A DNA stretch of 64,000 nucleotides from an uncultured Gammaproteobacteria bacterium (GTDB lineage Bacteria > Pseudomonadota > Gammaproteobacteria > GCA-001735895). A program made the position numbers and the translations under genes. The stretch is from contig CAJXUC010000001.1 of assembly GCA_913061315.1 (NCBI GenBank), forward strand, positions 72,197-136,196, read 5' to 3'. Under the pieces are notes generated by a model. That model had not been told where the DNA came from, did not search any database, and saw nothing but the letters and a program-made list of their open reading frames with translations. Of this stretch, positions 6,901 through 22,671 are shown piece after piece; position 1 is the stretch's first letter; each line of letters opens with the position of its first letter.

Positions 6901-7065
6901 GCCTTCTTTGTCCTTCAAATAAACTTCTAAAGGTGCATTTTCCAATATAGCATCGAGTCGCTGCTTGTGTATTAAGAGGTCATTTTTGGCTTTAGTGAGG
7001 CTATAAAGTTCTTTACGAAGGCGTTCATTTTCCAAAAGCAAGGCGGAAGAGGTCTTCTCATTCAT
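3979..7065 (-). CDS. c-di-GMP signalling protein: coiled-coil / PAS-GAF-PAS / GGDEF / EAL multidomain
   Basis: 1028 aa. Intact GGDEF motif (RIGGDEFIAV) followed by an EAL domain (EALIRWQHP…, DDFGTGYSSL…, QGY). A central GAF-like segment (GSCGTAAF…VIVEDIQSHP) and N-terminal PAS/PAC repeats. Confidence 0.9.
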   Translation of the reverse strand: MNEKTSSALLLENERLRKELYSLTKAKNDLLIHKQRLDAILENAPLEVYLKDKEGRYVKVNKQFEKNCGVKSNDLVGLLPDNIFSPKLSASSREHDLSVLTSGKTELREQTIEFDIDIQPRKLQTVKFPIFNADGDVHGLGAISTDITANLLTKESLRKSNILFSQAESMGNMGHWSWDLVEDRLIACSTQFALLFSMTVPEALDYFTSSEAVINLVHPDDKEYFKQSKNDPERLTNKVNLEYRIISPSGDTRHLHTRHEFMFNSNGTPSQSFGTAQDITERNQVLSWGKSRTHILELIASDVTLAVITEAIVRVIEEENPALLCSILLVDDFGENLLVSAAPSLPEFYRDAIDGIEISMGAGSCGTAAFINKRVIVEDIQSHPYWTNFKELASKAKLVSCWSEPIFATNGKLLGTFGIYCHKVYSPTNANISALEQAADLASIAIEKKQSESILKFSENRLRLALAVTKQAWFDLNIQTGVALTSSEYAKQLGYNPVNFHGDLQGWEDSLHPDDHDAVMTSFQTCLSHGIEFSSEYRRSKKGGGWLWFNTLGEITEWSSSQQPLRMIGIHTDITERKHTEKKLEHNAHYDLLTNLPNRVLLADRISQAIMQCHRRKQSLAVAFLDLDSFKEVNDTYGHNVGDELLIRLSHRMKEALREGDTLARIGGDEFIAVIVDLDNIEESKPVLERLLMAASEAVTLDDDVMQVSASIGVTLYPQDGVEPDQLMRRADQAMYLAKQGGKNRYHLFDTEHNNAIEIQRAELDDIHSALELNEFFLHYQPKVNMNTSEVMGVEALIRWQHPDRGLIPPLDFLTIIEGHVISLEVGEWVIINALKQLSQWHRMGIRLAISVNISAYQLQQDNFPSRLAILLAVYPDVSPTYLELEILETSELSDISQVFNTMNTCHELGIRFALDDFGTGYSSLTHLRRLPAYLIKIDQSFVLNMLEDAEDLAIVEGVIGLAKTFQREVIAEGVETIAHGEALLKLGCKLAQGYCIARPMPSADIPEWISKWKTYDAWRVPELIVTK

Positions 7066-7842
7066 TTAGACGACACCCGATGCCACTTGTCAGTGTTAAT
7101 TGGAATTTGATCATTACCTAAGCTTAGTAGAGGATAAAATTAATGCCAATGGGAATAAATCACTAGGTGGTTACGGTAATTGGATGCAGTGGTTTTTTTA
7201 GCTGAACTTTCAATGAGTTAGATTTCTAACCCTCAATTAAGATTTCTTAAAAAGTAAATTATTAGTTAAATGAAATTTAAAAAGATTAATAAAAAGTAAT
7301 AATTGTATCCGCCAATTAAAATCACTCAACAAGCCTAAGAAAGACTGCTAAAAAATCAAGCCTTCTATATTAAGACGCTGTAATGGAAAGCGGTGTTATA
7401 GAATCACAGATATGCTCAAAACTATTAGTTGCTTTATCACAATATGCCTTGTTTGGAGGTAGTCATGGGTTAGTCTGGGTGCGTTGTGCCACTCAGCATG
7501 GAAATTAAAAAAATTAAGTTTTCTATACAGAGTTTGGCATCATCTTGAGAAGATCTAAAGCCAGCTTGCTAAGGTGAGAAGAAGTGGCGACAGACTGTAT
7601 TTGAGTTAGCCTGTTGATATTGAATGTTGGTATCAATTGAAAGATTTCTGGATACCTCAACCATGGTGTTTATAAACCTCTGAACTTCAAGATCAATTCC
7701 AAAATAGTTCATTAAACTTTAAATATTAGAGTGAATTTTTATTGTTTAATGAGGTATGAAATCGTTTTGAGTATTATAAAAACCCTAATTAAATTAGAAA
7801 TAGGGGCGCAATAAACAACAGTAACATGATAAGTTTACAATA

Positions 7843-8670
7843 TCAGCTATCGTAAAGTGCACTCATTGATGCGGCTGCTCGTTTGAGTGATGGGAGATAC
7901 TGTCTAAGTAAAGCCAGAGATTTTCTAATAGTGGGGGCATGCATTGCAACAGTGAAACAGATTTCGTTTTTGGCATTAAATACGGGCACAGCGAGTGCAA
8001 CCATGCCCGGCAAAAATTCTTCATCATCGATGCCGATACCATCTCGTTTAATCAGTTTTAACTCAGTCTCAAGTTTAACCGGATCTGTTATTGATCGTTC
8101 GGTATATTGTTTCAGTGGTGCTGCGCAGATTAGTTTTTTACGCTGATTTGATGGCATGTGGGCAAGAAATAGTTTGCCGCTGGCGGTACAGTGTAAGGGT
8201 AGGTGAGAGCCAATTTTTAAATCAATTCGATAAGGCCAGTCACCTTCAACACGATCAAAATAAATCGTATGGTCGCCATCTAGCATAGCGCAATTGCAAG
8301 TTTCTTCTATTTCTTCAGACAAGGCCCTCAAGATGGCATGACGAGGTGCAGTTGACGCTCGATTTGTCAGAACGTCAAAACTGACATTTTTAAGTTTTGG
8401 ACCGATGGTTAAACGCTTGTTATTGGGTTCATACTGCAAATAACCTGCCTCTTCTAATTGTGAAGTTATCCGATGAACGGTTGGTTTAGGAATATCTAAT
8501 TCCTCGAGTAGGTCCGAGACTGTTTGCGCACGGGATGATGCGGCTACTTTTTCTAAAATTAACAGGCCTCTTAATAACGGCGAATTATTTTTACCACCTG
8601 AATTATTTTCTGACATTGAAAAACCTATCTTAGAATAAACACCTTTTAAAAAAGTCAAAGGTGTTGCCAT
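7843..8670 (-). CDS. IclR-family transcriptional regulator
   Basis: N-terminal wHTH (SDLLEELDIPKPTVHRITSQLEEAGYL) plus C-terminal IclR effector domain. The true start may be the internal Met at 8616 (MSENN…), which has a weak AGG upstream. Confidence 0.8.
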   Translation of the reverse strand: MATPLTFLKGVYSKIGFSMSENNSGGKNNSPLLRGLLILEKVAASSRAQTVSDLLEELDIPKPTVHRITSQLEEAGYLQYEPNNKRLTIGPKLKNVSFDVLTNRASTAPRHAILRALSEEIEETCNCAMLDGDHTIYFDRVEGDWPYRIDLKIGSHLPLHCTASGKLFLAHMPSNQRKKLICAAPLKQYTERSITDPVKLETELKLIKRDGIGIDDEEFLPGMVALAVPVFNAKNEICFTVAMHAPTIRKSLALLRQYLPSLKRAAASMSALYDS

Positions 8671-8689
8671 TGTTTATATCAACACTGTA

Positions 8690-9743
8690 GGAATTTTTTT
8701 CCCCTTGGTGTGTCTCTTGTTTACAGATAACTATAACCCCAAAACAGCACGAGGTAGGTCGACAATGGAGGCCAAAAGCTTCTAGCACTCAGTCCGCCAT
8801 TAAGGAAAAGAGATAAGGTAACACATGCCTTACGATCTGAAAATATGAGATGTTATAAATGTCACTTGCAACATATGGGCTGAAACCATAGGTTGAGGTT
8901 ATAAAAGCTATCGCATTATCCACCAGAAAAAACCGCAAAGTTAATGGGGTCTACGCCAACAGTATAGGCCATGGACTCTAATATAGGGGTTAAAATTATA
9001 GTGATTGGGAGGCTTTCTAACACTGCACCTGCTTAATGCCAACAGCATACAGGTAATGATGATAAGCATTGGCTCACCTAATGATGAGGTTACATCGTCC
9101 AAAAAAACCAAGTTCCTAGCTCCCAGTAATGAGAGTATCAGTTGCATGACGATAGAAACAGCAACTAATGGTGCTAAAATGTTAGTGATTTGACCTCATT
9201 GCATGAGTATATTAAGCATGCCGCCAATAAATAATTCACTTATCTGATGTTTGGCAAAAAAACATAGAAAATAAAATGATAATGCTAACCATACCACTAG
9301 TTGCTGCTGCAAACTTTTTTATCATAACCACCCTCAACTAGTTGAGGATGCATGATCAAAATAATAGTTGTGGAAGTATCGGAGTTTGACTCAGATATAG
9401 CCGCGAAGATACCTCAGGCTGATACCAATGCCATCCTCAGCCCACCATGAGCAGAAACCAAGCATGGAATAAGCAAAGTCAGAGAGAGGTATTGCAATAC
9501 TGGCGGCATTGATTAAATCACCCGTCATAATAAATAACGGCAATACCAGCAGATCCAAAAACTTAAACCTTCAAATAAAGTTGAGCCAATATTAGCCAGC
9601 ATAAAGTCGATCATTCGACTGATACAAGCGACCCAGAAGCCAAGCAACAAAAAATATAGCCAAACCAAAGATAAACAGGGCCGTGACACCGAGTCAATTA
9701 GAGTGTAATTTAAAAAACTGTTCCTGAATTGTTCCCAGCCCAT
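8690..9743 (-). pseudogene. eroded TRAP transporter large permease (dctM-like), multiple frameshifts
   Basis: Minus-strand translations give a DctM N-terminus (…LLLGFWVACISRMIDFMLANIGSTLFEG…). A fragment PLFIMTGDLINAASIAIPLSDFAYSMLG then shifts frame to HGGLRMALVSA; cf. DctM PFFILAGEIMNAGGIS…LVGH.RGGL…VVAS. In-frame stops and frame changes throughout; no intact ORF over 70 codons. Confidence 0.6.
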
Positions 9744-10000
9744 TCAATAGTGCTTGCATGATAACCGCTTCGCCACACTGACATCGTTGAATATCCTGTA
9801 ACAAACGCTGTATGGCGTGAACGATAATTAGACTCCAGACCACTGGCACCAGATTAAAATGAATTAGGTACATTGCGATACGACTTTACTGAGTTCCAGT
9901 AAAGCTGATTTTCATGCCTGCCAGTTGGTCAATCAATGTAGCCCTTTGCTTGTCTTTCTACTTAAGACCTAATTTCAAACCACGTGATTCACAATAATAA
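9705..10000 (-). pseudogene. remnant of TRAP small permease (dctQ-like), overlapping the dctM remnant start
   Basis: Hydrophobic 59-aa fragment (MYLIHFNLVPVVWSLIIVHAIQRLLQ…) ends with an overlap onto the dctM-like ATG, the usual dctQ/dctM junction geometry. Family assignment rests on position only. Confidence 0.3.
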
Positions 10001-10099
10001 TTATAGGTCATAACGTTTTTTCAATGGTTCCCGCAGCAGCGCTTCACTTTTATGGCTATTCAGGAAATGATATTGAGCTGCACGAGATAGAAGCATATA

Positions 10100-10430
10100 G
10101 GCCTAGTTGAGCACGTTTAAATAAGGGGCGCTGAACGCCTAGTTTTGAATCGAGGCAGAAAAAATATCGACAATGCCCTGCTGTGTTTTCTTAACTGAGC
10201 TGGTTTGACCACAAAAAATTGAGTGACTACCAATAATTTCAACTCGTATTTCACCATTCGTAGGGTCTTCCAAATTTTTAGCAAAAAATAATCCACCCTA
10301 TTTTTGAATATCAAGATTGGTTTCATTCAATCTCGAAGCGCCAAACTTCAATTAGAAATTTGGCCCCATAGCATAGCGTTTTTTGCGTTTCAGAATCACA
10401 GTGAGACTCTCCGTTCGGATTTTTGGACAT
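10100..10430 (-). pseudogene. remnant of TRAP DctP-family substrate-binding protein
   Basis: Minus-strand fragment TNGEIRVEIIGSHSIFCGQTSSVKKTQQGIVDIFSASIQN* resembles the DctP N-terminal region (…nGkikvevfp.gqLG.d.e.leal.lGtvDi…). It is truncated by stops; most of the roughly 1-kb gene is missing. Confidence 0.5.
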
Positions 10431-10782
10431 TGATTCTTTCCCTCAATTTAATTTAATGATCGTACAATGTCATTTGTGCCGTTTTCACCTTTTTATAAGA
10501 AGGTAAAGGCAAGGGTTGCCTCTCTACTATTACGTCGAATTTTCACATTTAGACCCACTCAGAAATTGATGCAGATCTATTTTGTTGATACCATGCGTCT
10601 CAGTTTTATACAAAATATAACTTTGAACCTTATATTATTGTTTGAAAACTAATATGTTTGATTAAATTTAACAGTGCGGTGTAACGAATATAGCAACGAC
10701 AAGAGAATCATCTATTTGCCATGGCTGGTTGTTTCGTAACCCAGGCATTGAATAAAGAGAGCATCTAAGAACGAGCACATAA

Positions 10783-12390
10783 GTGAATCAGTTAAAACAA
10801 ATTTATGATTACATTGTAGTAGGCGCAGGTTCAGCCGGATGCGTGCTAGCCAACCGTCTATCAGCCAATTCAGATAAGAGCGTCCTATTAGTTGAGGCTG
10901 GCGTAAAGGACACTAATCCTTGGATTCACGTCCCTGTTGGCTATTTCAAAACTATGCACAACCCAAAACTTGACTGGTGTTATAAAACTGAGCCAGATAA
11001 AGGCATTAACGGCAGAAGCCTGCAATGGCCACGTGGAAAAGTGCTTGGTGGTTCAAGCTCACTTAACGGATTGTTATACGTTCGAGGTCAACGCGAAGAC
11101 TATGATCGATGGTCGGCGTTGGGCAACAAGGGCTGGTCCTACGACGAAGTATTGCCCTACTTCAAAAAATCGGAGGACCAGGCAAGAGGTGCGGATGAAT
11201 ATCATGGTGTCGGTGGGCCGCTCAAAGTATCTGATTTACGTATTCGTCGACCAATTGCTGATTTTTTTATAAAGGCTGCCACTCAAATAGGCATACCCGA
11301 AAACCCTGACTACAATGGCGAAAAACAGGAAGGCGTCGGCTATTTTCAACAGACTGCACACAAAGGATTTCGATGTAGTACCGCAAAAGGTTTTCTGAGC
11401 CCGGTTCGCAATAGAGCTAACTTAACTATATTAACTAAGGCGCAAACAACACGTATTTTGCTTGAAGGTAAAAAAGCCGTCGGTATCGAATATTTGAAAT
11501 CAGGCCAGCTCCATCAAGCATCAGCCAGCTGCGAGGTCATAATCAGCGCAGGTGCCATCGGCTCGCCACAGCTATTGCAACTTTCAGGTATTGGCCCAGA
11601 AAACGTACTCAATAAGGCAGGTGTGCCAGTCGCTCATCACCTGCCAGGTGTCGGGCAAAACTTGCAAGATCACCTTCAAACTCGACTGGTATACAAAACC
11701 AGACTACGCACCCTGAATGACGAACTCAATAATATCTTCAAACGTGGTTTGGTAGGAATGCAATATTTATTGACTCGCAAGGGTCCGCTAACATTAGCCG
11801 CCAGTCAGGTCACTATTTTCACTAAATCTAACCCCGACGTAGAAAGGCCCGACATACAGTTCCACATGCAACCGCTCAGTGCCGATAAACCAGGTGATGG
11901 TGTTCATGAATTTTCAGCCTTCACACTATCAGTTTGCCAGTTGAGACCCAAAAGCCGTGGATCGGTTGAAATAAAATCGACAGACCCATTGGTATATCCA
12001 GATATTCATCCTGGCTATTTGGCAAACGACCATGACTGCCAGGTTGCCATCGACGGCATTAAAGTGGCCCGACGCATTGCTGACGCACCTGCCTTAAAAC
12101 CGCATATCATTGATGAGCACGTGCCAGGCAGGCAGTTCGAAACCGATGAACAGCTACTCGAGACGGCGCGCCAGTTTAGCCAAACCATCTACCATCCAAC
12201 CAGTACCTGTAAAATGGGATCTGATGATATGGCAGTAGTCGATGAACAGCTTAAAGTTCATGGTATCCACAATCTTAGAGTAGTTGACGCATCGATCATG
12301 CCCGAAATTGTATCAGGCAATACCAATGCCCCAACAATTATGATTGCAGAAAAAGCGGCTGATATGATTATTGATGAAGCTACTTTATAG
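10783..12390 (+). CDS. GMC-family FAD-dependent oxidoreductase (choline/alcohol dehydrogenase-like)
   Basis: 535 aa. N-terminal FAD-binding fingerprint YDYIVVGAGSAGCVLANRLS, GMC signature region, and C-terminal active-site segment …[29 protein letters not shown]. Confidence 0.9.
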   Translation: MNQLKQIYDYIVVGAGSAGCVLANRLSANSDKSVLLVEAGVKDTNPWIHVPVGYFKTMHNPKLDWCYKTEPDKGINGRSLQWPRGKVLGGSSSLNGLLYVRGQREDYDRWSALGNKGWSYDEVLPYFKKSEDQARGADEYHGVGGPLKVSDLRIRRPIADFFIKAATQIGIPENPDYNGEKQEGVGYFQQTAHKGFRCSTAKGFLSPVRNRANLTILTKAQTTRILLEGKKAVGIEYLKSGQLHQASASCEVIISAGAIGSPQLLQLSGIGPENVLNKAGVPVAHHLPGVGQNLQDHLQTRLVYKTRLRTLNDELNNIFKRGLVGMQYLLTRKGPLTLAASQVTIFTKSNPDVERPDIQFHMQPLSADKPGDGVHEFSAFTLSVCQLRPKSRGSVEIKSTDPLVYPDIHPGYLANDHDCQVAIDGIKVARRIADAPALKPHIIDEHVPGRQFETDEQLLETARQFSQTIYHPTSTCKMGSDDMAVVDEQLKVHGIHNLRVVDASIMPEIVSGNTNAPTIMIAEKAADMIIDEATL

Positions 12391-12884
12391 GCTGTAGAGG
12401 CAAAATTTTGGTTATCAATTACCATCTAGAGCACTTTGAATAATCCAGCACGATCTTCCACCCCAAACCCCGTCTAGATCTCTTTTGATATATTCCAGGA
12501 AGAAGGGCTGAAAGTTTGGCCTCGAATCAGTTTTTTTGCGCGAGCCGGAATGCAGTTAACAACATCCTTATATATGTTTAACGGTGCACCGATATGCAGA
12601 TTGCCAAGTGCATAGGAACTAGAATGAATAACTACTGCCATCTTTTTGCATTTGGGGCCGTATAAAAACAGATACAAGCTGGTTGGCTAACCAAGGCGTA
12701 TTCCGTCCGACAGATGTGGACCCCTTTTTTTCTAACTGAGAAATCTAAGGTGGAAACTACCCGTAATCCAATGTTCGTTATATAGTCGATACCGATTTAT
12801 CGCTTATGTCGCAAAGCCAAAAGTTAGCAGGGAAATAATAGGTATACCGTCCCTAGATCCCTGATAAATTCTGAGCTGACTGAC

Positions 12885-13883
12885 CTAACTAAATAAGGAC
12901 TCTCCCGACACGACTTCAAAATAAAGATAACATTGATAGGCCACGAATAAAGCGCATAGTACCGCGCCTTTGGCGCGGCTAATTTGATTGAGTTTTTGAT
13001 TTCTACTGAATGAGAACGCAAATAGCAAAAGAGTAAGGAACACCATTACCGGAAGATCTCGATGCAGTGCTGCTGAATCTATGACAAACCCTTGAATGAG
13101 CGCTGGAATACCTACCACCGCGAGACTATTGAAAAGGTTAGAGCCGATCACGTTACCAATGGCCATATCGGTCATCGACTTTTTCAGACTAGCAATCGAT
13201 GCTGCCAGCTCCGGTAAACTGGTGCCAAACGCGACGATCGTCAAACCAATCACCAAGTCGCTTACACCGAGGCTGTGTGCGATATTCGATGCGCCCCAAA
13301 CTAGCATGTGCGAACTGCTAATCAATAGCACTAGACCGAGCAAAACCCAAAGCCAGGCAGTTTTAATGGACATCGGCTGGTCGTCGCCAACTGCATCTTC
13401 ATCAACTGATACTTCTTTTTTGCCGTTGCGATGGCTATAAATCATATAAGACATGATTCCTATTAGCAGACCAATCAGCAGAAAACCATCGAGACGGTCT
13501 AACTGCAAGTCATAGAGGCACCACACGAGTACGACAGTGGCGCCGGCTAACAGTGGATATTCTGATCGAATCAGGCCGTTTGGTACAGAAATTGGCGCGA
13601 GCAACGCGGTAATGCCGAGGATTAACCCAACATTGGCAATGTTCGAGCCGATTGCATTGCCTACCGCAATACCAGGCACCTCTTCAAGTACCGCAATGAC
13701 CGATACAGCAATTTCTGGCGCCGAAGTGCCGAAACCAACCACGGTAATGCCGATAATTAGATTGGAAACACCCATGTGCTGCGCAATAGCAGCAGCACCG
13801 TCAACGAAACGATCGGCACTCCAGACCAGAATTGCAAGGCCAACTACAATAGCAGCGATAGACAATAACAAATTAGACTCCAC
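12885..13883 (-). CDS. yrbG: CaCA-family Na+/Ca2+ (K+-dependent-type) antiporter, YrbG-like
   Basis: 332 aa. Two internal alpha-repeat halves each carrying GxSxPE (GFGTSAPEIAVSV, AFGTSLPELAASI), about 10 TM segments, and a central acidic loop. Confidence 0.85.
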   Translation of the reverse strand: MESNLLLSIAAIVVGLAILVWSADRFVDGAAAIAQHMGVSNLIIGITVVGFGTSAPEIAVSVIAVLEEVPGIAVGNAIGSNIANVGLILGITALLAPISVPNGLIRSEYPLLAGATVVLVWCLYDLQLDRLDGFLLIGLLIGIMSYMIYSHRNGKKEVSVDEDAVGDDQPMSIKTAWLWVLLGLVLLISSSHMLVWGASNIAHSLGVSDLVIGLTIVAFGTSLPELAASIASLKKSMTDMAIGNVIGSNLFNSLAVVGIPALIQGFVIDSAALHRDLPVMVFLTLLLFAFSFSRNQKLNQISRAKGAVLCALFVAYQCYLYFEVVSGESLFS

Positions 13884-14139
13884 AAAAAAATTTAAACGAT
13901 AAACAATCAGAAAACGCAGATATAAAGTATCGAGGCTTATTTCTGCTTAAATAATAGGTTTGAATCAATCTATCGTTTTACTACTATCACTCAACGCAAT
14001 AGGCAAACAGAGCCACCTGTGACATTTGCTCAGCGGTTGCTGAATTTTCCCAGCTTTTTTCAAACATTGGATAGAATTTTATTTATTATGGTGATACTTA
14101 TAGTCTCATTTTTACAATTTATGAACATTATTGCAACCA

Positions 14140-14254
14140 AATTACCACTTTTCCATGGAATCATGTCGACTGCCTTCTCCACAATCATGATTGTTGGAGC
14201 ATTGGTTTTGCTAGATAGGGTCTTGGGCATGATCGAAGCATCAATATCACGCAA
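14140..14254 (-). pseudogene. fragment of a GMC-oxidoreductase C-terminus (paralogous to 10783-12390)
   Basis: Minus-strand [35 protein letters not shown]… matches the last ~35 residues of GMC enzymes (VDASIMP…[18 protein letters not shown]). No upstream catalytic body; it diverges into nonsense after ~40 codons. Confidence 0.7.
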
Positions 14255-14777
14255 TCCATTATACCCATCTAAAACCCTGATAAGTGGTCTGTTGAAAATA
14301 ACTGCCCAGTATGTTCAGTTAAAGATTAAAAAGTCCAGTTCCAGCCACGACTAATAGTACTTTGTGCGCCAGATTTCCGGACAGCTAATCTGAAGCCAAC
14401 GAAGGTATGGCCAAGTGGATCGATAAACCCCTCACCAACGTATGTTGCCAATCGACAATACGATAAACCCTTCTAAAATGGACTAAAAAGTCTCTTTTAG
14501 TGATGATTTAGGGCCCTTTTAGTTGATTCTAGTTCTGTATAGCGCCATCAAGTTTGGCTTTTGGGATGCCGGACTGAGACAAAACTTATGTGTATTTAGC
14601 CCTGTCACTCAATCGCAAAAAAATGTAAGATTGGGACTGATAGTCTCATTTTAGCTGAATTTTTTCAGTATGTGGCATTCAACTGGGGCGGAACGCCGGC
14701 CCAGCAAGCTCCGAGGCATCGTCTTCAGCCTCGCGAAGCATAAAATAACGAAGGCTTTCTTAATACGAGGAGTAGGT

Positions 14778-15875
14778 ATGATCAAACTAAAAACTATTGC
14801 TGCCAGTACAGCAGCCCTGGCACTCATGGCATCGTCTGCCATGGCGGAAGACAAAGTCTTGCGTATTCAGTCGGTGCTATCCACTTCAGCTGACGAAGTC
14901 GTTATGTTGAGGGAGTTTGGTAAAGATGTCGCAGCGCTGACTAACGGCTCGCTCACCATTGAAGTTCTGCCAGCAGGCGCTGTTGTCGGGCCACGAGACG
15001 TTATGGATGCCGTTGACTCGGGTCTGGTTGAAGGTGGTTTTGCCTGGACACATTATTGGGGTGGCAAACACGTTGCTGCTAACCTGTTCGGCGCACCTAT
15101 AGCGGGTGCCGGTGTAGGACTCGATAATATCGCGTTCCTGAGCTGGTTCCAGTACGGTGGTGGCAAGGAGTTGTACGATCGCCTATGGGGTGAAATGGGC
15201 GTGAACGTCAAAGGATTCATGCTGCAGCCAGTAGGCCCTGAGGCACTTGGTTGGTTCCCAAAACCAATCAAGTCGATGGATGACTTTCGTAAATTACGCT
15301 TCCGTGCGCCTCCGGGCATGGTGGGTGCCGCATACGCTGAAATTGGTGTTCCAGCGGTTGCTATGGGCGGTGGCGATATCCTACCAGCGCTTGAGAAAGG
15401 CACGATCGACGCAGCTGAGTGGTGCTGCCCCAAGCCAGATTCTGTCTTTGGTTTCCAAAAAGTATTAAAGCACTACTATCTCCAGGGTTTGCACCAGGTA
15501 GTCGTGAACGCAGACATGTATGTGAATGGCGATTTTTACAAGTCGCTGAGCGTCGTTGAGAAGAAAGCTTTGGAAGTGGCGGCAAACGCGTCTCTGTCAA
15601 AATCCTTGTCCTACAGAATCTATGAGAACGGTAAGGCACTGAAAGATCTGACGGATAATCACGGTGTTATCCTGGAAGATACACCAGCGGATTACTTCAC
15701 AGAGTACATGGCGGCCGCTAAGAAGTCGCTTCAAGCTGCTGCAGATAAAAACGAGTTTTTTGCAGAAGTGTGGCAGTCACAAAAAGATTTCGCCGACACG
15801 GTAGTTCCCTTCTGGTCTGGTGCTCAAACTTCAAACGCAAGTTTGGGTCGTGCGCACGCAGACACTCTGAAGTAA
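14778..15875 (+). CDS. dctP: TRAP transporter substrate-binding protein (DctP-type, extracytoplasmic solute receptor)
   Basis: Start taken at ATG 14778 (MIKLKT…), which follows GAGGAGTAGG; the six-frame ORF extends spuriously upstream to 14670. Signal peptide AALALMASSAMA. Conserved …GGGDILPALEKGTIDAAEW… motif of the larger TRAP SBP class. Immediately followed by the fused permease. Confidence 0.75.
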   Translation: MIKLKTIAASTAALALMASSAMAEDKVLRIQSVLSTSADEVVMLREFGKDVAALTNGSLTIEVLPAGAVVGPRDVMDAVDSGLVEGGFAWTHYWGGKHVAANLFGAPIAGAGVGLDNIAFLSWFQYGGGKELYDRLWGEMGVNVKGFMLQPVGPEALGWFPKPIKSMDDFRKLRFRAPPGMVGAAYAEIGVPAVAMGGGDILPALEKGTIDAAEWCCPKPDSVFGFQKVLKHYYLQGLHQVVVNADMYVNGDFYKSLSVVEKKALEVAANASLSKSLSYRIYENGKALKDLTDNHGVILEDTPADYFTEYMAAAKKSLQAAADKNEFFAEVWQSQKDFADTVVPFWSGAQTSNASLGRAHADTLK

Positions 15876-16065
15876 AAAAAGACTTCGTTGCGAGTCCCAT
15901 TTAGGGCTCGTTTCGAAGTTTCTGTAAGTAGTACCATCTTGGGTGAGCGTACAGACCACGAACGCTAGTTTGGGTCGTGCACATGCCAATATACTTAAGT
16001 AAAAAACTTCGTTGCGAGGCTCATGAGGGTCTCGCTTCGAAATTTCTGTAAGGGGCTAAGCCCTG
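15833..16065 (+). repeat. tandem ~120-bp duplication of the dctP 3' end plus downstream hairpin
   Basis: Copy 1 (15833-15930) includes the last 14 dctP codons (…SNASLGRAHADTLK*) and hairpin cttcgttgcgagtccc/gggctcgtttcgaag. Copy 2 (15957-16050) is ~80% identical, still reads …TNASLGRAHANILK*, and has its own hairpin (gcgaggctcatgagggtctcgc). A third small GC hairpin (ggggctaagccc) lies at 16051-16064. Confidence 0.7.
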
Positions 16066-16115
16066 TTTAAATAATAATAGCCCGAAATGGGTACAAAATA
16101 CTGGGGAGAAGGATC

Positions 16116-18590
16116 ATGGCTTTAGATGAAGTAAATCCAGAAGATCTTGAAATTGCGGATGAACTAATTGCTGAGCGTCGTACCGAGGCCCCGGGTGAAA
16201 CGCCAGAAGATATGACGTCCTGGCAACGCCCTATTACGGCAGCCATTGATATAATCAATTACCGGGTAGGCCAGATTATTGCCCTGCTCATTGTGCCGCT
16301 CCTTGTTGTAGTGGTTCTAGAAGTTCTTTCACGAAATTCCTTTTCGATTTTGCAAAATGCTGGGTTCGAAGACCTCGCCCGAACCCTTGGACTTGGTCCC
16401 ACGCTCTGGGTGTATGACACCAGCCGTATGATAGCTGGGATACTCTTCATGGCGGCCGCGGGCTATGGTTTGATGCGTGGGGTTCACATCCGGGCCGATT
16501 TCCTCTACCGAAATTGGTCGGCAAAAACACAAGCGACAGTAGATGCAACACTGTATCTGATGTTCTTTATGCCTTCGATGATCTTCTTTACCGTTATCGC
16601 CTCCGACTTCTGGTGGCTCGCCTTTTCAAGGGGCGAAACCATGCAGGTCGACAGTGCTTGGGGACCCCTTTTATGGCCCGCACGCCTGGCGATGCCCGTC
16701 GGTGCCTTCCTTTTGATGCTGCAAGGCCTCCCTGAAATTTTCCGTGCATTTCACAAGATGGGTAAAGAGCGAGAGCGTTGGTTTGTAAGGGCTTTACCTA
16801 TCTATATAATCGTACTGACCTGGCTCGTACTGGCGGTTTTCCATCCGAGTATGATCCCAGGTGGCGAATCGTTTTCTGACCTCATGTCTGCCCGCCCGAA
16901 CATAGACAAAGCTACCATCGGATTGATCATGCTAGGCGCCATGCTCTTCGTGATTTTTATCGGTTTTCCAATTGCCTTCACGTTAATCTTCCTTGCCTTT
17001 GTGTTTGGTATTTGGGGCGCCAACTTCAAGTTAACCACGCTATTGATGACGCTAAATACAAACTCCACCATGTTGAACGATCAGCTCATGGCCGTGCCAC
17101 TCTTCGTACTAATGGGAATCGTGATGGAAGCGGCGGGCTTGATGAACCGGTTGTTTGCATCGATCCAGATGATGATGTCGCGCGTTCGCGGCGCGTTGTT
17201 CATCGCCGTGCTAATCGTATCGACGATTTTTGCAGCAGCCACTGGCATTGTGGGTGCTTCTGTAACCCTACTTGGAATCATGGCGGGTGCGACCATGACC
17301 AGAGCAGGCTATGACGTCAAGCTTGCGGCTGGAACTATCACCGCAGGCGGCACATTGGGCATTCTGATACCACCCTCAATTATGCTGATCGTTATGGGAC
17401 CTGTTCTGGAAGTTTCAACCCTGGATCTTTTCCGTGGTGCCTTTATCCCTGGCGCCATGCTGGCTAGCCTTTACCTGCTCTACACACTGGGACGCTGCTG
17501 GCTGAATCCGGATCTAGGGCCAATTTTGTCAGACGAAGACCAACCACAAACGTCGCCATTTTATGGCGCTGAGGTCGCGCTGATTTGTTTGGGTGTTTTG
17601 ACCGTTTGCCGAGTCTTTGGCCTGGCCATGAGTGGTGCTTTTAGCAGTATGATGCCATTTGGCGGCCTGATCGTTTTGGGCATTACCTGTGCCATCGCTT
17701 ATGCCGCATACCGTCGCTTGAATCTACTCAAGATTGTGCTTCCGTTGACGCTTATTTTCCACATCTATATGATCTTTGCGACAATGGGCGAGGACGGTAG
17801 CCTAACGATCTGGTCGATAACTCTTGGTTCATTCACCCTGCTTTTGGGATATTTGGGACGACCGATTTATAACGCTGCGTCAGACAATGGGTTCTACTTC
17901 TCGGATCTATGGGATGAGTTCTTTGCCGGGCTCATGCCGCCCACGATCTTAATTTCTTTTGCTTTGGGGTCGATTCTTCTTGGCCTGGCAACACCTGCTG
18001 AAGCCGCAGCGATGGGCGCCTTTGGTGCCATCTTGTTAGCTATCGGTTACGGTAAATTTAACTTCCCTAGTTTCTTTGACAGTCTGGTCAAAGCCCTGGA
18101 GATCACAGTTCTGATCATGTTTTTGGTTGCCGCATCGAACTTCTTTGGCGCCGAATTCAGTTATTTGGGTACGCCAAAGATGATGACTGAGCTGCTACTT
18201 GACCTCGACATGTCGCCATACCTCATTCTGATCGTCATTATGGCACTGATCTTCCTTCTAGGATGGCCACTAGAGTGGGTGCCTATTGTTCTGATCGTTG
18301 TGCCAATTTTGTTACCAACAGTCGAGGCGCTGGACATCCACGGGCTGGATCGCTACGACCTCATGGTCTGGTTTGGGATTTTAGTCGCGGTGAATCTGCA
18401 GACCGCTTGGCTATCCCCACCTGTGGCCTTATCAGCTTACTTTTTGAAGGGAGTCGTGCCGGATTGGGATCTCAAGGACATCTATCTGGGTATGATGCAG
18501 TTCATGGGGATTCAACTCATCGGTCTTATCTTACTGTTTATCTTCCCGCAACTGGTGCTTTGGTTACCCAGAGTGATGTCTGGTGGGTAA
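16116..18590 (+). CDS. dctQM: TRAP transporter fused small+large permease (DctQ-DctM fusion) with N-terminal cytoplasmic extension
   Basis: 824 aa and highly hydrophobic. After a ~45-aa acidic N-terminus comes a 4-TM DctQ-like module, then a ~12-TM DctM-like module. Operonic with the DctP gene. Confidence 0.8.
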   Translation: MALDEVNPEDLEIADELIAERRTEAPGETPEDMTSWQRPITAAIDIINYRVGQIIALLIVPLLVVVVLEVLSRNSFSILQNAGFEDLARTLGLGPTLWVYDTSRMIAGILFMAAAGYGLMRGVHIRADFLYRNWSAKTQATVDATLYLMFFMPSMIFFTVIASDFWWLAFSRGETMQVDSAWGPLLWPARLAMPVGAFLLMLQGLPEIFRAFHKMGKERERWFVRALPIYIIVLTWLVLAVFHPSMIPGGESFSDLMSARPNIDKATIGLIMLGAMLFVIFIGFPIAFTLIFLAFVFGIWGANFKLTTLLMTLNTNSTMLNDQLMAVPLFVLMGIVMEAAGLMNRLFASIQMMMSRVRGALFIAVLIVSTIFAAATGIVGASVTLLGIMAGATMTRAGYDVKLAAGTITAGGTLGILIPPSIMLIVMGPVLEVSTLDLFRGAFIPGAMLASLYLLYTLGRCWLNPDLGPILSDEDQPQTSPFYGAEVALICLGVLTVCRVFGLAMSGAFSSMMPFGGLIVLGITCAIAYAAYRRLNLLKIVLPLTLIFHIYMIFATMGEDGSLTIWSITLGSFTLLLGYLGRPIYNAASDNGFYFSDLWDEFFAGLMPPTILISFALGSILLGLATPAEAAAMGAFGAILLAIGYGKFNFPSFFDSLVKALEITVLIMFLVAASNFFGAEFSYLGTPKMMTELLLDLDMSPYLILIVIMALIFLLGWPLEWVPIVLIVVPILLPTVEALDIHGLDRYDLMVWFGILVAVNLQTAWLSPPVALSAYFLKGVVPDWDLKDIYLGMMQFMGIQLIGLILLFIFPQLVLWLPRVMSGG

Positions 18591-18636
18591 ATCATGAAGG
18601 GTAAATTATGGTGCATCTCATTCAATTTAACTTGCG

Positions 18637-18822
18637 TTGAGCAGCGCCCGACAGGATGATATGGCACTAATCGATGAACGACTTAAGTTACTCGGCATTC
18701 AAAACTTAGATGTGATCGATACATCGATCATGCCGAAGATTGTGTCAGGTAATACCAATCCATCGACGATCATGATTGCGGAAAAAGCGGTCAATATGAT
18801 TATTGAATATAGCGCTCATTAA
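18637..18822 (+). pseudogene. second GMC-oxidoreductase C-terminal fragment (about 61 codons only)
   Basis: …LLGIQNLDVIDTSIMPKIVSGNTNPSTIMIAEKAVNMIIE… is collinear with the C-terminus of the intact GMC enzyme at 12210-12390 (…[40 protein letters not shown]…). Nucleotide identity over the segment is only moderate, so this is a paralog rather than a recent copy. It sits 47 bp after the dctQM stop. Confidence 0.75.
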
Positions 18823-18877
18823 AATTGCCAGATAAACATGTGATTTCATAAAAAGGGCCGAACTTTAAAGGACTGGA

Positions 18878-20071
18878 CTAGATCGTGTCACCAGGGACGC
18901 GAACTAAACCTTCCATCAAAACCCTGGCGCTACGACTCATTGTCGCTTTATTAACAGTCCATACGCCTTCGCACTGACTGACTTGCGCGCCTACTCGTAA
19001 CGTGCCAGACGGATGGCCGAAGCAAACGCTTTGGCGTTCACCACCACCGGCAGCCTGATTAACTATAGTACCGGGAATAGCGGCAGCGGTTGCAATCGCA
19101 ACGGCAGCGGTGCCCATCATCGCATGGTGTAATTTACCCATTGATAACGCCCTAACGTTCAAATCGATATCTAAAGCTGAAATGGGCTTAGTGCTTGAAG
19201 CTATATAATCAATCGGGTTGGCCACGATGGCCACTTTGGGTGTGTGCTGACGTTGTGACGCTTGTTCAATTGTATTAACCAAACCCATAGCCACCGCACC
19301 CTTTACTCGTATGATTTCAAATAGAGCGAGTGCTTTAGCATCGCTATTAATATCGTCCTGTAATTCGGTGCCGTTATACCCGAGATCCTGCGCCTTAATG
19401 AAAATAGTGGGAATGCCAGCATTAATCAGGGTCACCTTAATGGGTCCAACGTCGGGCACTTCAAGTTCGTCAATCAAATTTCCAGTTGGGAACATGGCAC
19501 CCCCAGCATCTGCTGGGTTGACAAACTCAACTTCTATTTCAGCTGCAGGAAAAGTGACACCATCGAGTTCGAAGTCACCGGTTTCCTGAACCTCATGGTC
19601 CGTGATTGGCACCTGTGCAATAATTGTTTTTTGAATATTGGCCTGCCAGATGCGAACTGTAGCTATGCCATTATCTGGCACAAGGCTCGGATCAACCAGC
19701 CCGTTACTAATTGCAAATGGACCAACAGCCGCACTTAAATTGCCACAGTTGCCACTCCAATCAACAACCGGCTTGTCGATAGAAACCTGACCAAACAAAT
19801 AGTCAACATCATGGTTGGGTTGGTTACTTTTTGACAAGATAACGACTTTACTGGTGCTCGAGGTTGCACCCCCCATGCCATCCGTTTGCTTACCATACGG
19901 GTCAGGGCTTCCGACAACACGTAGTAGCAGGGCATCGCGTGCTGCGCCGGGTTTTTTTGCCGCTTCAGGCAGGTTATCTTGTTTAAAAAAAACGCCTTTA
20001 CTGGTGCCACCACGCATATAGGTGGCGGCGATTTTGATTTGAGGAGGCGCTGTTTGATCGTTAAGTTTCAT
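18878..20071 (-). CDS. prpF: 2-methylaconitate isomerase PrpF (AcnD accessory protein)
   Basis: 397 aa PrpF/diaminopimelate-epimerase-fold family (…ATYMRGGTSKGVFF…). Directly downstream of acnD, as in known acnD-prpF pairs. Confidence 0.88.
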   Translation of the reverse strand: MKLNDQTAPPQIKIAATYMRGGTSKGVFFKQDNLPEAAKKPGAARDALLLRVVGSPDPYGKQTDGMGGATSSTSKVVILSKSNQPNHDVDYLFGQVSIDKPVVDWSGNCGNLSAAVGPFAISNGLVDPSLVPDNGIATVRIWQANIQKTIIAQVPITDHEVQETGDFELDGVTFPAAEIEVEFVNPADAGGAMFPTGNLIDELEVPDVGPIKVTLINAGIPTIFIKAQDLGYNGTELQDDINSDAKALALFEIIRVKGAVAMGLVNTIEQASQRQHTPKVAIVANPIDYIASSTKPISALDIDLNVRALSMGKLHHAMMGTAAVAIATAAAIPGTIVNQAAGGGERQSVCFGHPSGTLRVGAQVSQCEGVWTVNKATMSRSARVLMEGLVRVPGDTI

Positions 20072-20076
20072 TGTCG

Positions 20077-22671
20077 CTACGCTACGTTTGACGATTCAAG
20101 AAAGTCTTGTGCAAAACGTTGCAACACACCGCCAGCCTCGTAAACCGACACTTCTTCAGCGGTATCAATCCGGCAGATTACGGGTACTTTCAAGCTCTCT
20201 CCGCTACTACGATTAATTATCAGGGTCAATGTTGCTAGCGCTGTGATTTCTCCCGTTACATCAAATGTCTCAGTACCGTCAATATTATATGTTGCTCTAG
20301 TCTCACCGGCTTTAAATTCAATCGGCAATATACCCATACCTACCAGATTAGTTCGGTGAATACGCTCAAAACCTTCAGCCACAATGACCTCTACGCCGGC
20401 GAGTCGAACACCTTTGGCAGCCCAGTCGCGTGAAGAGCCCTGGCCATAGTCAGCCCCCGCAACAATGATTAATGGTTGCTTGCGTTGCATATAGGCTTCA
20501 ATGGCTTCCCACATTCGAGTAACTTTTCCCTCTGGCTCAATACGAGCCAGAGAGCCCTGTTGAGTTTCACCGTCCTTGGTTACCATTTCATTTAATAATT
20601 TTGGATTGGCAAAGGTCGCTCTTTGTGCAGTAAGATGGTCGCCACGATGGGTTGCATAAGAATTAAAGTCTACTTCTGGTAGGCCCATTTTAGTCAGATA
20701 CTCACCAGCAGCACTAGACGCCAATATGGCGTTTGAGGGTGATAAGTGATCTGTTGTAATATTGTCACCAAGCACTGCTAAAGGGCGCATGCCCTTTAAA
20801 TTGCGCTCACCCGCCAAGGCACCTTCCCAATAGGGTGGACGACGAATATAGGTAGTTTGAGGCCGCCAGTCATACAGTGGGTTAACGGATTCGGTGGCAC
20901 TATCAGATCCAGCAAACATAGGAATATAAACTTGCTGATACTGCTCAGGTTTAACGCTAGCCTTGACGACCGCATCAATTTCATCATCATCTGGCCAGAT
21001 ATCTTTCAGTGTGACAGGCTGGTCCTTTTGATCAAAGCCAAGTACATCTTTTTCTATATCAAAGCGAATAGTTCCGGCAATCGCATAGGCGACAACTAGC
21101 GGTGGTGAAGCTAGAAACGCTTGCTTTGCATAGGGATGGATTCGGCCATCAAAATTTCTATTACCGGATAAAACGGCAGTTGCATAGAGGTCTCTATCGA
21201 CTATTTCCTTCTGAATTACAGGATCAAGAGCACCACTCATGCCATTACAAGTAGTACAGGCAAATCCAACAATACCAAATCCAAGTTGTTCTAGTTCTGA
21301 AAGCAAGTTAGCTTCTTGTAAATAAAGTTGAACTGTTTTTGAACCTGGGGCGAGTGACGTCTTGACCCAGGGCTTTCTTAGCAGGCCAAGCTCATTGGCT
21401 TTACGCGCTATCAAACCAGCAGCGATCATATTGCGAGGATTACTGGTATTGGTGCAGCTGGTGATGGCGGCAATGATCACTGCACCATCTGGCATTAAAC
21501 CGGCTTTATTTTCAACTTTACCGGCAATACCGCGGGCAGCAAGTTCAGATGTTGGCACCCTTTTGTGGGGGCTGGATGGCCCAGCGATGTTACGAACTAC
21601 TGAAGATAAATCAAAGGTTAATACACGCTCATACACTGCGTTTTGGAGGTCGTCGGCCCATAAACCACATTGTTTAGCGTAGATCTCTACTAGTTTAACC
21701 TGTTCTGGTTCACGGCCAGTAAGTTTTAAGTAGTCAATGGTTTGCTGGTCTATATAAAACATCCCCGCTGACGCGCCAAATTCTGGGGTCATATTGGATA
21801 TTGTCGCTCGATCACCCAAAGTCAATGCAGCTGCTCCTTCCCCATAAAATTCGAGATAAGTGGATACAACTTTTTGATCTCGTAGAAATTCAGTAATAGC
21901 TAGAACAATATCAGTGGCAGTAATGCCAGGTTGACGTTTACCGGCCAAGTTAACACCGACGATATGTGGCAAACGCATGTGGGAGGCTCGGCCCAGCATA
22001 ACATTCTCTGCTTCAAGTCCACCGACACCAATGGCGAGAACCCCTAAAGCATCAACGTGAGGCGTATGACTATCAGTCCCAACTAAAGTATCAGGGAAGG
22101 CTAAGCCATCTTGTAATTGAATGACAGGAGACATTTTCTCTAAATTAATCTGATGCATGATGCCGTTACCGGGCTGAATGACATCAACATTCTTAAATGC
22201 TTTTTTGGTCCAATTAATGAAGTGAAATCGGTCGTCATTGCGGCGATCTTCAATTGCTCGATTTTTTTCGAATGCATCAGCTTCAAATCCACCATGTTCC
22301 ACAGCCAGTGAGTGATCAACAATTAACTGTGTTGGCACCACGGGATTAACTTGTGACGGGTCACCTCCTTGTTCGGCAATAGCATCACGCAAACCAGCGA
22401 GATCAACCAGTGCTGTTTGACCCAAAATATCATGACACACTACCCGCGCGGGATACCAAGGGAAGTCTAAATCCCGCTTACGGTAAATGAGTTGCCCTAG
22501 CGAGGCATTTAGCAAAGCTGGATCGCACCGTCGTACCAAGTTTTCGGCCAACACTTTTGAGGTATAAGGCAGGTGCTCATAAGCCCCGGGCTCAATAGCA
22601 TTGATGGCTAAACGTGCATCGAAATAATCAAATTGTGTGCCCACTAATGGTTTGCGAAAATCTGTATTCAT
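20077..22671 (-). CDS. acnD: Fe-S 2-methylcitrate dehydratase AcnD (aconitase A family)
   Basis: 864 aa aconitase-family protein with Fe-S ligand region (…CTNTSNP…, …GFACTTCNGMSG…) and swivel domain. Operon position between prpC and prpF. Confidence 0.9.
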   Translation of the reverse strand: MNTDFRKPLVGTQFDYFDARLAINAIEPGAYEHLPYTSKVLAENLVRRCDPALLNASLGQLIYRKRDLDFPWYPARVVCHDILGQTALVDLAGLRDAIAEQGGDPSQVNPVVPTQLIVDHSLAVEHGGFEADAFEKNRAIEDRRNDDRFHFINWTKKAFKNVDVIQPGNGIMHQINLEKMSPVIQLQDGLAFPDTLVGTDSHTPHVDALGVLAIGVGGLEAENVMLGRASHMRLPHIVGVNLAGKRQPGITATDIVLAITEFLRDQKVVSTYLEFYGEGAAALTLGDRATISNMTPEFGASAGMFYIDQQTIDYLKLTGREPEQVKLVEIYAKQCGLWADDLQNAVYERVLTFDLSSVVRNIAGPSSPHKRVPTSELAARGIAGKVENKAGLMPDGAVIIAAITSCTNTSNPRNMIAAGLIARKANELGLLRKPWVKTSLAPGSKTVQLYLQEANLLSELEQLGFGIVGFACTTCNGMSGALDPVIQKEIVDRDLYATAVLSGNRNFDGRIHPYAKQAFLASPPLVVAYAIAGTIRFDIEKDVLGFDQKDQPVTLKDIWPDDDEIDAVVKASVKPEQYQQVYIPMFAGSDSATESVNPLYDWRPQTTYIRRPPYWEGALAGERNLKGMRPLAVLGDNITTDHLSPSNAILASSAAGEYLTKMGLPEVDFNSYATHRGDHLTAQRATFANPKLLNEMVTKDGETQQGSLARIEPEGKVTRMWEAIEAYMQRKQPLIIVAGADYGQGSSRDWAAKGVRLAGVEVIVAEGFERIHRTNLVGMGILPIEFKAGETRATYNIDGTETFDVTGEITALATLTLIINRSSGESLKVPVICRIDTAEEVSVYEAGGVLQRFAQDFLESSNVA

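Follow-up and report, generated by a model that had tools for sequence, protein, structure and literature searches.

Region 7.4-18.9 kb of the 64,000-nucleotide stretch analysed here (the window; contig CAJXUC010000001.1, positions 72,197 to 136,196, from assembly GCA_913061315.1 of an uncultured Gammaproteobacteria bacterium of the GTDB lineage GCA-001735895) contains intact genes and gene remnants of flavoprotein dehydrogenases of the GMC family and of transport systems of the tripartite ATP-independent periplasmic (TRAP) type, together with a gene for an IclR-type regulator. On balance, we regard this region as a mosaic, partly decayed island for the uptake and oxidation of a hydroxy-sulfonate, in which the intact genes are complementary survivors of redundant modules. 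The relatives with which it was compared are metagenome contigs and genomes, labelled L001 to L109, among which L098 represents the sister lineage.

The proposed history starts from two ancestral modules. Module A would have comprised an IclR gene, a classical dctP-dctQ-dctM operon and a GMC dehydrogenase gene, and module B a GMC gene divergent from dctP-dctQM, then hpsN, genes for a short-chain dehydrogenase/reductase (SDR) and a zinc-dependent alcohol dehydrogenase (Zn-ADH), and a further GMC gene, with a Ca/Na antiporter gene in addition. Deletions would have removed redundant or unselected parts: the classical TRAP of module A, the divergent GMC gene of module B, which would have collapsed to about 300 bp, and, in one deletion, hpsN, SDR, ADH and most of the terminal GMC gene. 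The working set left behind would be IclR, GMC_A, the Ca/Na antiporter and the module B transporter (TRAP_B), in which DctP would bind the sulfonate in the periplasm, DctQM would import it by a cation gradient, GMC_A would oxidise the primary alcohol to an aldehyde (isethionate to sulfoacetaldehyde), and IclR would control three transcription units via a common palindrome.

Surviving genes and relics at the two loci

The first-pass annotation of the stretch had described two redundant GMC-TRAP modules, one with an intact GMC gene beside TRAP remnants (locus A) and the other with an intact TRAP transporter flanked on both sides by GMC stubs (locus B). Pfam domains and tblastn relics confirm both arrangements. 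Redundancy and complementary survival hold, but the copy number does not, since at least 3 GMC copies are represented; likewise, module B did combine GMC and TRAP, but appears to have been part of a larger organosulfonate island that also lost hpsN, SDR and Zn-ADH.

At locus A, the intact GMC dehydrogenase gene, GMC_A (10783..12390, plus strand; Pfam), encodes a 535-aa candidate IseJ-like flavoprotein with GMC_oxred_N (PF00732, E=1e-53) and GMC_oxred_C (PF05199, E=2e-39) domains, the GxGxxG motif of the FAD-binding N-terminal domain being present as GAGSAG. A GMC-protein search of the genome collection yielded, among the matches listed, orthologues with 72-77% identity in many Gamma- and Betaproteobacteria, which adjoin an IclR gene plus a TRAP or major facilitator superfamily (MFS) transporter; in Pandoraea, the same GMC gene is flanked by IclR and MFS transporter genes. 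The intact IclR-family transcriptional regulator of the window, IclRw, is encoded at 7843..8670 on the minus strand (Pfam HTH_IclR and IclR_C). Between the two genes lie minus-strand relics of a classical TRAP operon. Those of the large permease gene dctM (8774..9710; tblastn with L061 DctM, Pfam) consist of pieces at 9300-9710, 9004-9213 and 8774-8929, which correspond to aa 3-142, 269-337 and 363-414 of L061 DctM, respectively. The dctP pseudogene relic (9787..10384; tblastn, Pfam) covers aa 51-251 of ~409, with 9992-10384 matching L061 DctP aa 51-180 (70% identity over 131 aa, E=5e-57, tblastn) and 9787-9996 matching aa 182-251. The stop-ridden minus-strand frames between 8.7 and 10.4 kb still reach Pfam DctP (E=1e-5) and DctM (E=3e-5). 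No dctQ match was obtained among the relics at E<=1e-4 with the relatives' protein; dctQ and the 3' third of dctP have been deleted, and the deletion at the same position is larger in L098. The intact classical layout is found in L061 (Vibrio nigripulchritudo), where IclR<dctM<dctQ<dctP is divergent from GMC> and DctP is ~408 aa long, and classical TRAP with IclR and GMC also occurs in L034 (Cocleimonas flava), L017, L018, L057 and several metagenome-assembled genomes. The relics at 8.7-10.4 kb do align to TRAP proteins, so that a non-TRAP origin fails; the relics are as first described, although the start then given to the region, 10100, cuts through them, their true span being 8774-10384.

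At locus B, dctP (14778..15875, plus strand) is intact and encodes a 365-aa solute-binding protein (Pfam DctP, PF03480, E=5e-29), the N-terminus of which (MIKLKTIAASTAALALMASSAMA) was judged by eye to be a signal peptide. The fused membrane subunit gene dctQM (16116..18590, plus strand; Pfam DctQ PF04290 and DctM PF06808), also intact, encodes 824 aa, compared with 792-833 aa, mostly 820-826 aa, in the listed homologues. Protein identity in relatives is 90-98% for DctP, and for DctQM 84-91% across marine Gammaproteobacteria and Rhodobacteraceae. The dctP-dctQM spacer contains a direct repeat, a 124-bp tandem duplication (15877..16052, plus strand), which repeats the last 24 dctP codons (copy at 15928-15999; tblastn DctP aa 342-365, E=7e-6) and is present in L101 and absent in L098. 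Upstream of dctP, a leader of ~130 nt (14648..14777, plus strand) is conserved about as strongly as coding DNA across divergent lineages; in an alignment of 10 lineages, the RNAalifold consensus contains 25 pairs, 6 of them with compensatory changes, and predicts a GC-rich hairpin as well as pairing of a GCUCC stretch with the Shine-Dalgarno sequence. No Rfam family was found for it in a search of 8000-19500, and the leader may act in cis as a regulatory RNA.

In relatives, the fused TRAP belongs to a mosaic island with GMC, HisD-family, SDR, Zn-ADH, Ca/Na antiporter and IclR genes, the order of which differs in almost every lineage. These islands carry scars of their own, including remnants of GMC (aa 365-530 in L103, aa 83-136 in both L105 and L082), of DctQM (aa 762-819 in L103) and, as tails in L022 and L023, of DctM. 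Compared with Aliiroseovarius pelagivivens (L109, 8792-12475), protein identity is 90% for DctP and 86% for DctQM, as against 55% for GMC and 37-41% for IclR. The GC content of the TRAP genes is ~50%, versus ~40% in neighbouring non-coding DNA. The conservation and the GC contrast point to inter-class horizontal transfer of the transporter genes alone.

The right GMC stub, GMC_R (18655..18822, plus strand; tblastn; automatic call of a 53-aa open reading frame (ORF) at 18661-18822), is a neutral 3'-terminal relic of aa ~480-535. Within it, GMC_A aa 481-531 match 18655-18807 (plus strand) with 71% identity (E=8e-17, tblastn), and the 53-aa ORF has a precomputed PF05199 (GMC_oxred_C) match. In L023, dctP-dctQM-hpsN-SDR-ADH-GMC is intact, whereas downstream of dctQM in L098 there are pseudogenes of hpsN (aa 7-333, frameshifted), SDR (aa 132-258) and ADH (aa 1-204), followed by the last 13 GMC codons and then the same flank, which runs on to prpF. 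The prpF junction is common to the window, L098 and L101, and in the window and L101 the ~65-nt conserved dctQM 3' flank (18591-18654) is joined straight to GMC codon ~474-480. Since the dctQM flank joins the GMC tail directly, one deletion would have taken hpsN, SDR, ADH and most of the GMC gene; HpsN, SDR and ADH gave no match in the window at 1-24000 or at 6001-21000. Two 448-aa members of the 90% cluster of the stub (P0147 and P0150), considered as longer GMC proteins, proved to be cytochrome bd subunit I, a clustering artefact. Several public sources annotate the stub as 'choline dehydrogenase'.

The left relic, GMC_B (14144..14450, minus strand; tblastn with the L093 and L097 GMC proteins), is a collapsed GMC pseudogene divergent from dctP. 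The first-pass annotation had reported only a C-terminal stub at 14140-14254; this piece is real, with GMC_A aa 492-529 matching 14272-14159 on the minus strand (63% identity, E=5e-9, tblastn within the window), but the relic is larger and also includes N-terminal pieces. In gene order, these pieces are aa ~22-45 (14320-14384), degenerate and with an in-frame stop, aa 183-194 (14265-14300), 10/12 identical, and aa 490-530 (14144-14266), a set without a usable FAD-binding N-domain. The relic with its 3' flank has 81% nucleotide identity to the GMC fragment of L103; the intact GMC genes of L093 and L097, both divergent from dctP in the same geometry, have 78-79% identity to it. Against L098, the relic aligns gap-free with the same deletion junctions, and its identity is 66-74%, compared with 82-84% in the flanking antiporter gene and dctP upstream region. 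Two VGYF-coding repeats of the gene may mark the ends of the first deletion.

The two stubs lie in opposite orientations, their truncated 5' ends pointing towards each other, and as an inverted repeat they are 74% complementary over 87 nt. As first noted, their nucleotide similarity to the intact GMC gene is moderate: 75% for the right stub, over 152 nt, and 77% for the left, over 86 nt. Their synteny with full-length GMC genes was looked for in relatives and found, so that fortuitous matches do not explain them. They are GMC remnants as originally proposed, but their origins differ: the right stub, like the L023 gene, is closest to the GMC_A type (75-78% nucleotide identity) and the left relic to the B type, which means that at least 3 GMC genes once existed. 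Insertion of a TRAP cassette into one GMC gene was considered and rejected, because both flanking pieces are C-terminal and inverted; retention of N-terminal pieces in gene order by the left relic also rules out this single-GMC insertion.

The layout has been recovered repeatedly. The same gene order is present in 16 metagenome contig loci (L001-L016, including 2 that were cut with overlap from a single scaffold) derived from numerous independent samples and assemblers, the locus being seen in Tara and other marine metagenome assemblies, and the 53-aa stub ORF is carried by 13/13 of those loci that extend past dctQM. Thus, as the first-pass annotation had maintained, the arrangement is not an assembly artefact.

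Between the two loci, 12885..13883 (minus strand) encodes an intact Ca2+/Na+ antiporter family protein (Na_Ca_ex, YrbG-like; Pfam E=3e-66; 250 bits against the 180-bit cut-off of NCBIfam TIGR00367). In relatives, this gene adjoins dctQM, hpsN or a GMC gene (L105, L103, L022 and L035). TRAP transport is Na+-coupled. A Ca2+ requirement for ligand binding has been published for the SAR11 homologue in this class of TRAP. The antiporter recurs in the sulfonate island of relatives and might conceivably look after cation balance for the transporter. Further upstream, the 780-bp gene-free gap between the GGDEF-EAL and IclR genes holds collapsed relics (7379-7712, minus strand; aa 1-57 and aa ~260-308) of an Abhydrolase_3 alpha/beta-hydrolase gene, which is intact at the same position in L098 and L106.

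Selection, recombination and a common palindrome

The intact genes are under purifying selection and the right stub is neutral. By the Nei-Gojobori method, applied to the pairs window-L098 and window-L101, the ratio of nonsynonymous to synonymous divergence (dN/dS) is 0.02-0.15 for IclR, GMC_A, the antiporter, dctP, dctQM, prpF, acnD and prpC, with individual values of 0.025 for IclR (90% identical to its L098 orthologue), 0.086 for GMC_A, 0.146 for the antiporter, 0.02-0.07 for DctP and 0.04-0.07 for DctQM. The right stub, 92% identical in nucleotide sequence to that of L101, differs from it by 11 nonsynonymous and 3 synonymous changes (dN/dS ~1.0-1.4), and wherever the retrieved population variants of the 53-aa ORF vary (A/P, K/R and V/M), the amino acid is changed.

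When the window is compared with L098, GMC_A, the antiporter, dctP and dctQM show a synonymous divergence (dS) of 0.38-0.57, and IclR, prpF, acnD and prpC one of 1.3-4.2; between the window and L101, dS is 0.25 for prpF and 1.05 for acnD. Because dS is far lower inside the GMC_A-to-dctQM block than in the flanking genes, recombination appears to have passed the block between lineages, and it may have been partly decayed before it reached this genome. Two derived features, the right stub and the 124-bp dctP-tail duplication, are common to the window and L101, the PrpF of which is 94% identical; upstream of dctP, L101 has a B-type GMC gene that is intact, lies on the plus strand and shows 71% identity to GMC_A. 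The same B-type gene (99.8% identical) is found in L106-L108 together with an IclR gene of their own, 69% identical to the L097 type and 39% to the window IclR, and a truncated gene for an FMN dehydrogenase; of the window-type IclR, a 33-aa relic is left there. Given that the B-type GMC gene and this IclR are intact and the window-type IclR is a relic, the L101/L106 lineage retained the other regulator and the other GMC. In L106 (11180-21012; also in L107 and L108), a defence/mobile island follows the B-type GMC gene where dctP would be expected, with genes for an HTH_17 excisionase-like protein, an MmeI N-terminal fragment, AbiTii, CcdA/CcdB and a TIR-SIR2 (Thoeris-like) protein.

Alignment of the dctP upstream regions of ten lineages yielded a palindrome, GAGAC-N5-GTCTC, for which the window was scanned at <=1 mismatch. 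It occurs 3 times in the 64 kb (0.79 expected), and all 3 copies lie within the promoter DNA (~1 kb) in front of the GMC gene, the antiporter gene and dctP: GATAC-N5-GTCTC at 10587..10601, a candidate operator ~180 bp upstream of GMC_A; GATAC-N5-GTCTC at 14093..14107, ~220 bp upstream of the antiporter gene, just beyond the 3' end of the left relic; and GGGAC-N5-GTCTC at 14633..14647, ~130 bp upstream of dctP. Similarity extends into the flanks, as (AAAA)TGAGAC-N5-GTCTCA(TTTT), and the background density is 0.03 per kb in 1.6 Mb of related loci. The perfect palindrome is found at the same position upstream of dctP in L101, L105, L097, L082 and L093, and in the IclR-GMC intergenic region of Aliiroseovarius pelagivivens (L109, 7009-7023), 25 bp upstream of GMC. 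Further copies are located upstream of GMC_A in L098, between dctP and GMC in the Vibrio locus L061 (9882-9896, a related site) and, as a homologous palindrome, after the GMC fragment of L103 (13077). A direct search for 12-mers shared by the GMC and dctP promoter regions gave nothing convincing, and a consensus promoter scan remained at background level and was uninformative.

Good positional evidence suggests that the palindrome is a shared operator, with the IclR-type regulator as the candidate protein to bind it. A GMC_A-type gene natively adjoins the fused TRAP in L022, L035, L025, L027 and others, and in L022 and L035 it comes with the window-type IclR. This native adjacency elsewhere and the common rare palindrome lend indirect support to cooperation between the survivors, as does the purifying selection on all intact genes, and it is plausible that GMC_A and TRAP_B act together. 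We infer their physical cooperation, like their co-regulation and the substrate, from such comparisons of sequence.

Candidate substrate and known sulfonate systems

The substrate is probably a hydroxy-sulfonate, isethionate or 2,3-dihydroxypropane-1-sulfonate (DHPS), rather than choline. The HisD-like protein of L097 matches the solved sulfopropanediol 3-dehydrogenase HpsN (E=3e-176), and hpsN is intact in L097, L022, L023, L082, L103, L105 and L109 and a pseudogene in L098. In Aliiroseovarius, the cluster reads GMC-DctP-DctQM-TerC-HpsN-SDR-ADH-Usp-ComD-ComE-FMN_dh next to IclR, and its ComD and ComE exceed the NCBIfam cut-offs for sulfopyruvate decarboxylase. From what is established about the pathways, the isethionate and DHPS branches would converge on sulfoacetaldehyde.

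The isethionate cluster of R. pomeroyi DSS-3, iseR-iseM-iseL-iseK-iseJ (SPO2355-2359; PMC4334477), has the same order as locus A, namely IclR-type regulator, dctM, dctQ, dctP and flavin-dependent dehydrogenase, which is intact in L061 and survives as relics in the window, where IclR occupies the position of iseR (PMC4334477). IseJ has been described as 'membrane-bound flavin-dependent' (PMC4334477, PMC6453916), and in Cupriavidus necator iseJ goes with an MFS transporter gene, iseU (Weinitschke et al. 2010, cited in PMC4334477 and PMC6453916). The dehydrogenase studied here similarly pairs with a classical TRAP, a fused TRAP or, in Pandoraea, an MFS transporter. By contrast with the ise cluster, the classical TRAP of the window is dead, and the only intact transporter is of another TRAP subfamily, with fused DctQM. 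The varied-transporter pattern was reportedly described by Weinitschke et al. in 2010. IseJ itself is presumably a member of the GMC family, and its likeness to GMC_A is one of layout.

The DHPS cluster of R. pomeroyi is hpsKLM-hpsNOPQ(R)-slcD, and hpsN/O/P are also known from Cupriavidus pinatubonensis (PMC4334477, PMC11382572, PMC13335735). The relatives of TRAP_B resemble it in adjoining HpsN, SDR, Zn-ADH, Usp, sulfopyruvate decarboxylase and an FMN-dependent lactate-dehydrogenase-like enzyme, the last of which is in the position of SlcD and likened to it by position only. They differ from it in that the window lacks hpsN, hpsO and hpsP, pseudogenes being retained only in the sister lineage, that the binding protein of the window is not of the RpHpsK type, and that the island adds GMC, IclR and Ca/Na antiporter genes. 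The loss of hpsNOP has probably restricted the substrate range of the lineage, from both isethionate and DHPS to compounds of the isethionate type.

Ca. Pelagibacter ubique has a single TRAP binding protein, SAR11_0864, which offers a further parallel: with Ca2+, it binds isethionate and R/S-DHPS (PMC11485210), and it belongs to cluster 3 of a sequence similarity network, linked to hpsNOP neighbourhoods in Alpha-, Beta- and Gammaproteobacteria (PMC13335735). Like it, the DctP of the window is distinct from RpHpsK and, in relatives, hpsNOP-associated, a likeness of neighbourhood alone; dual specificity for isethionate and DHPS would explain a GMC branch and an hpsNOP branch with one transporter. 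The closest solved structures to this DctP are TakP/lactate-type TRAP binding proteins (4pet, 2hzk and 2zzv; E~1e-30). Two of these, 4pet and 2zzv (lactate-binding TTHA0766), are taken by us to use bound Ca2+.

These parallels permit a more specific, distinctly tentative proposal: a combined island with GMC, fused TRAP, hpsN/O/P and the antiporter, in which one dual-specificity, Ca2+-dependent TRAP of the SAR11_0864 type feeds two sulfonate branches and which has been pruned in opposite directions, this genome being left isethionate-only with a hybrid regulon. Isethionate would be processed through GMC and DHPS through HpsNOP, sulfolactate dehydrogenase and sulfopyruvate decarboxylase, both leading to sulfoacetaldehyde. 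One palindromic operator and the structured dctP leader would control the island, which would be prone to recombination, with the TRAP pair moving between Alpha- and Gammaproteobacteria and closely related polar-ocean lineages pruning in opposite directions. If this reading holds, such a combined island is previously undescribed. All parts nevertheless come from known families and the process is a known one, that of ordinary genome pruning. As in other cases of non-orthologous transporter displacement and of reciprocal loss from redundant operons, whether duplicated or acquired, deletions leave one copy per function, and the L101/L106 lineage retained the other GMC and regulator; what differs here is that the survivors come from different cassette variants, an operon-level mosaic and not single duplicated genes, and appear tied by a common operator.

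Elsewhere in the window, two genes for Ldh_2-family dehydrogenases (30540-31613 and 61181-62245, both plus strand) and one for a PALP enzyme (52941-53966, minus strand), which lies beside a LysR gene, were recognised by their Pfam domains only. The Ldh_2 family presumably includes the sulfolactate dehydrogenase ComC, and the PLP-dependent (PALP) family, we assume, the cysteate sulfo-lyase CuyA; the three could be further sulfonate genes. In a 258-aa ORF at 35074-35853 (minus strand), the sole domain is the N-terminal one of MmgE/PrpD, covered at profile positions 1-134 of 244, and the ORF may be a truncated prpD-like gene; the window already uses the AcnD/PrpF route.

Alternative explanations and implications

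Several observations weigh against the sulfonate island with cooperating survivors. GMC_A reaches the NCBIfam subfamily model PRK02106, 'choline dehydrogenase' (641 against a cut-off of 605 bits); no xsc, pta or sulfite-handling genes were recognised among the window genes scanned; and at E<=1e-5 the DctP of the window matches neither the solved, DHPS-binding RpHpsK (24gc) nor 8t9t, a protein that binds isethionate, weak matches to them being confined, among the DctPs compared, to the classical one of L061. A scan at <=1 mismatch does not find the palindrome in L022 or L035, whose regulator is of the same type as that of the window; where the palindrome does occur, the IclR proteins beside it are of two types, only ~38% identical; and each copy with its T-run is readable as a small hairpin, the dctP copy having been flagged as terminator-like by the scan. 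The dN/dS of the stub is based on just 14 substitutions.

Some of these points would suit a reading, to which we assign roughly one chance in a handful, that the survivors are not a functional pair: TRAP_B would bring in a sulfonate or another acid for enzymes encoded elsewhere, the GMC_A substrate would enter otherwise, and adjacency would be a deletion leftover. Besides the missing palindromes of L022 and L035, this reading draws on the low identity (37-39%) of the window IclR to the regulators beside the dctP palindrome in type-B clusters and on the behaviour of the TRAP pair as an independent unit, judged by its greater mobility and, in Aliiroseovarius, its far higher conservation than that of GMC and IclR. 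It sits poorly with the presence of the same GMC family next to this TRAP type in many independent lineages, with the rare palindrome in all three promoter regions of the window and with the low dS that marks GMC_A, the antiporter, dctP and dctQM as inherited or exchanged as one unit. The same dS contrast with the flanks can be turned to a different account, a little more credible to us though still doubtful, in which the relics did not decay here, the block having arrived already scarred by recombination or horizontal transfer through cassette shuffling. The identical deletion junctions of the left relic in both lineages, the comparable GMC, DctQM and DctM fragments in the cassettes of L103, L105, L082, L022 and L023, the gene order that differs in almost every lineage and the higher GC content of the TRAP genes than of the surrounding non-coding DNA all favour it. 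However, decay continued on site: the window, L098 and L101 have the same prpF junction but different remnants downstream of dctQM, and the extent of the TRAP-A relics differs between the window and L098. Moreover, this account changes the place of decay and not the complementary survival, and so overlaps with the island of complementary survivors proposed above.

The first-pass annotation had suggested a choline-like or polyol substrate. We consider it improbable that GMC_A is a choline or polyol dehydrogenase and that the TRAP imports a choline-like osmolyte. The PRK02106 score, the calls of public annotation pipelines, which name the protein choline dehydrogenase, and the closest solved structures, which include oxygen-dependent choline dehydrogenase, favour that assignment, but GMC_A falls below the cut-off of the BetA equivalog TIGR01810 (530 < 732 bits), no betB, betI or betT was seen beside GMC_A in the window or among the relatives' neighbours examined, and those neighbours are instead HpsN, HpsO/P-like proteins, sulfopyruvate decarboxylase and the FMN-dependent lactate-dehydrogenase-like enzyme. 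TRAP transporters, moreover, carry organic anions, and choline is a cation. Least probable of all, to the point of being barely credible, is a functional role for the right stub, whether as a small gene or as a regulatory element, suggested by a 53-61 codon ORF kept in many samples. Although the ORF is open in the window and L101, is called as a gene in the 13 L001-L016 loci that pass dctQM and directly follows the conserved dctQM 3' flank, its dN/dS relative to L101 and its exclusively amino-acid-changing variants speak against such a role, and L098 has lost all but 13 codons. An enzyme it cannot be, because the FAD-binding N-terminal domain is lacking.

In the sea, isethionate and DHPS are major currencies exchanged by phytoplankton and bacteria, and annotation is still the chief basis for inferring which bacteria take them up. 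At this locus, the labels 'choline dehydrogenase' and 'mannitol/chloroaromatic TRAP' mislead and hide what is probably a sulfonate island, and counts of GMC and TRAP families would be too high, given that several matches are dead relics, one of them called as a 53-aa 'choline dehydrogenase' gene in many metagenomes. The common palindrome and the dctP leader provide handles on regulation, and the locus as a whole is a compact natural experiment on how redundant operons are resolved. Collectively, the results refine rather than overturn current understanding and suggest that close lineages can differ in sulfonate range through small deletions.

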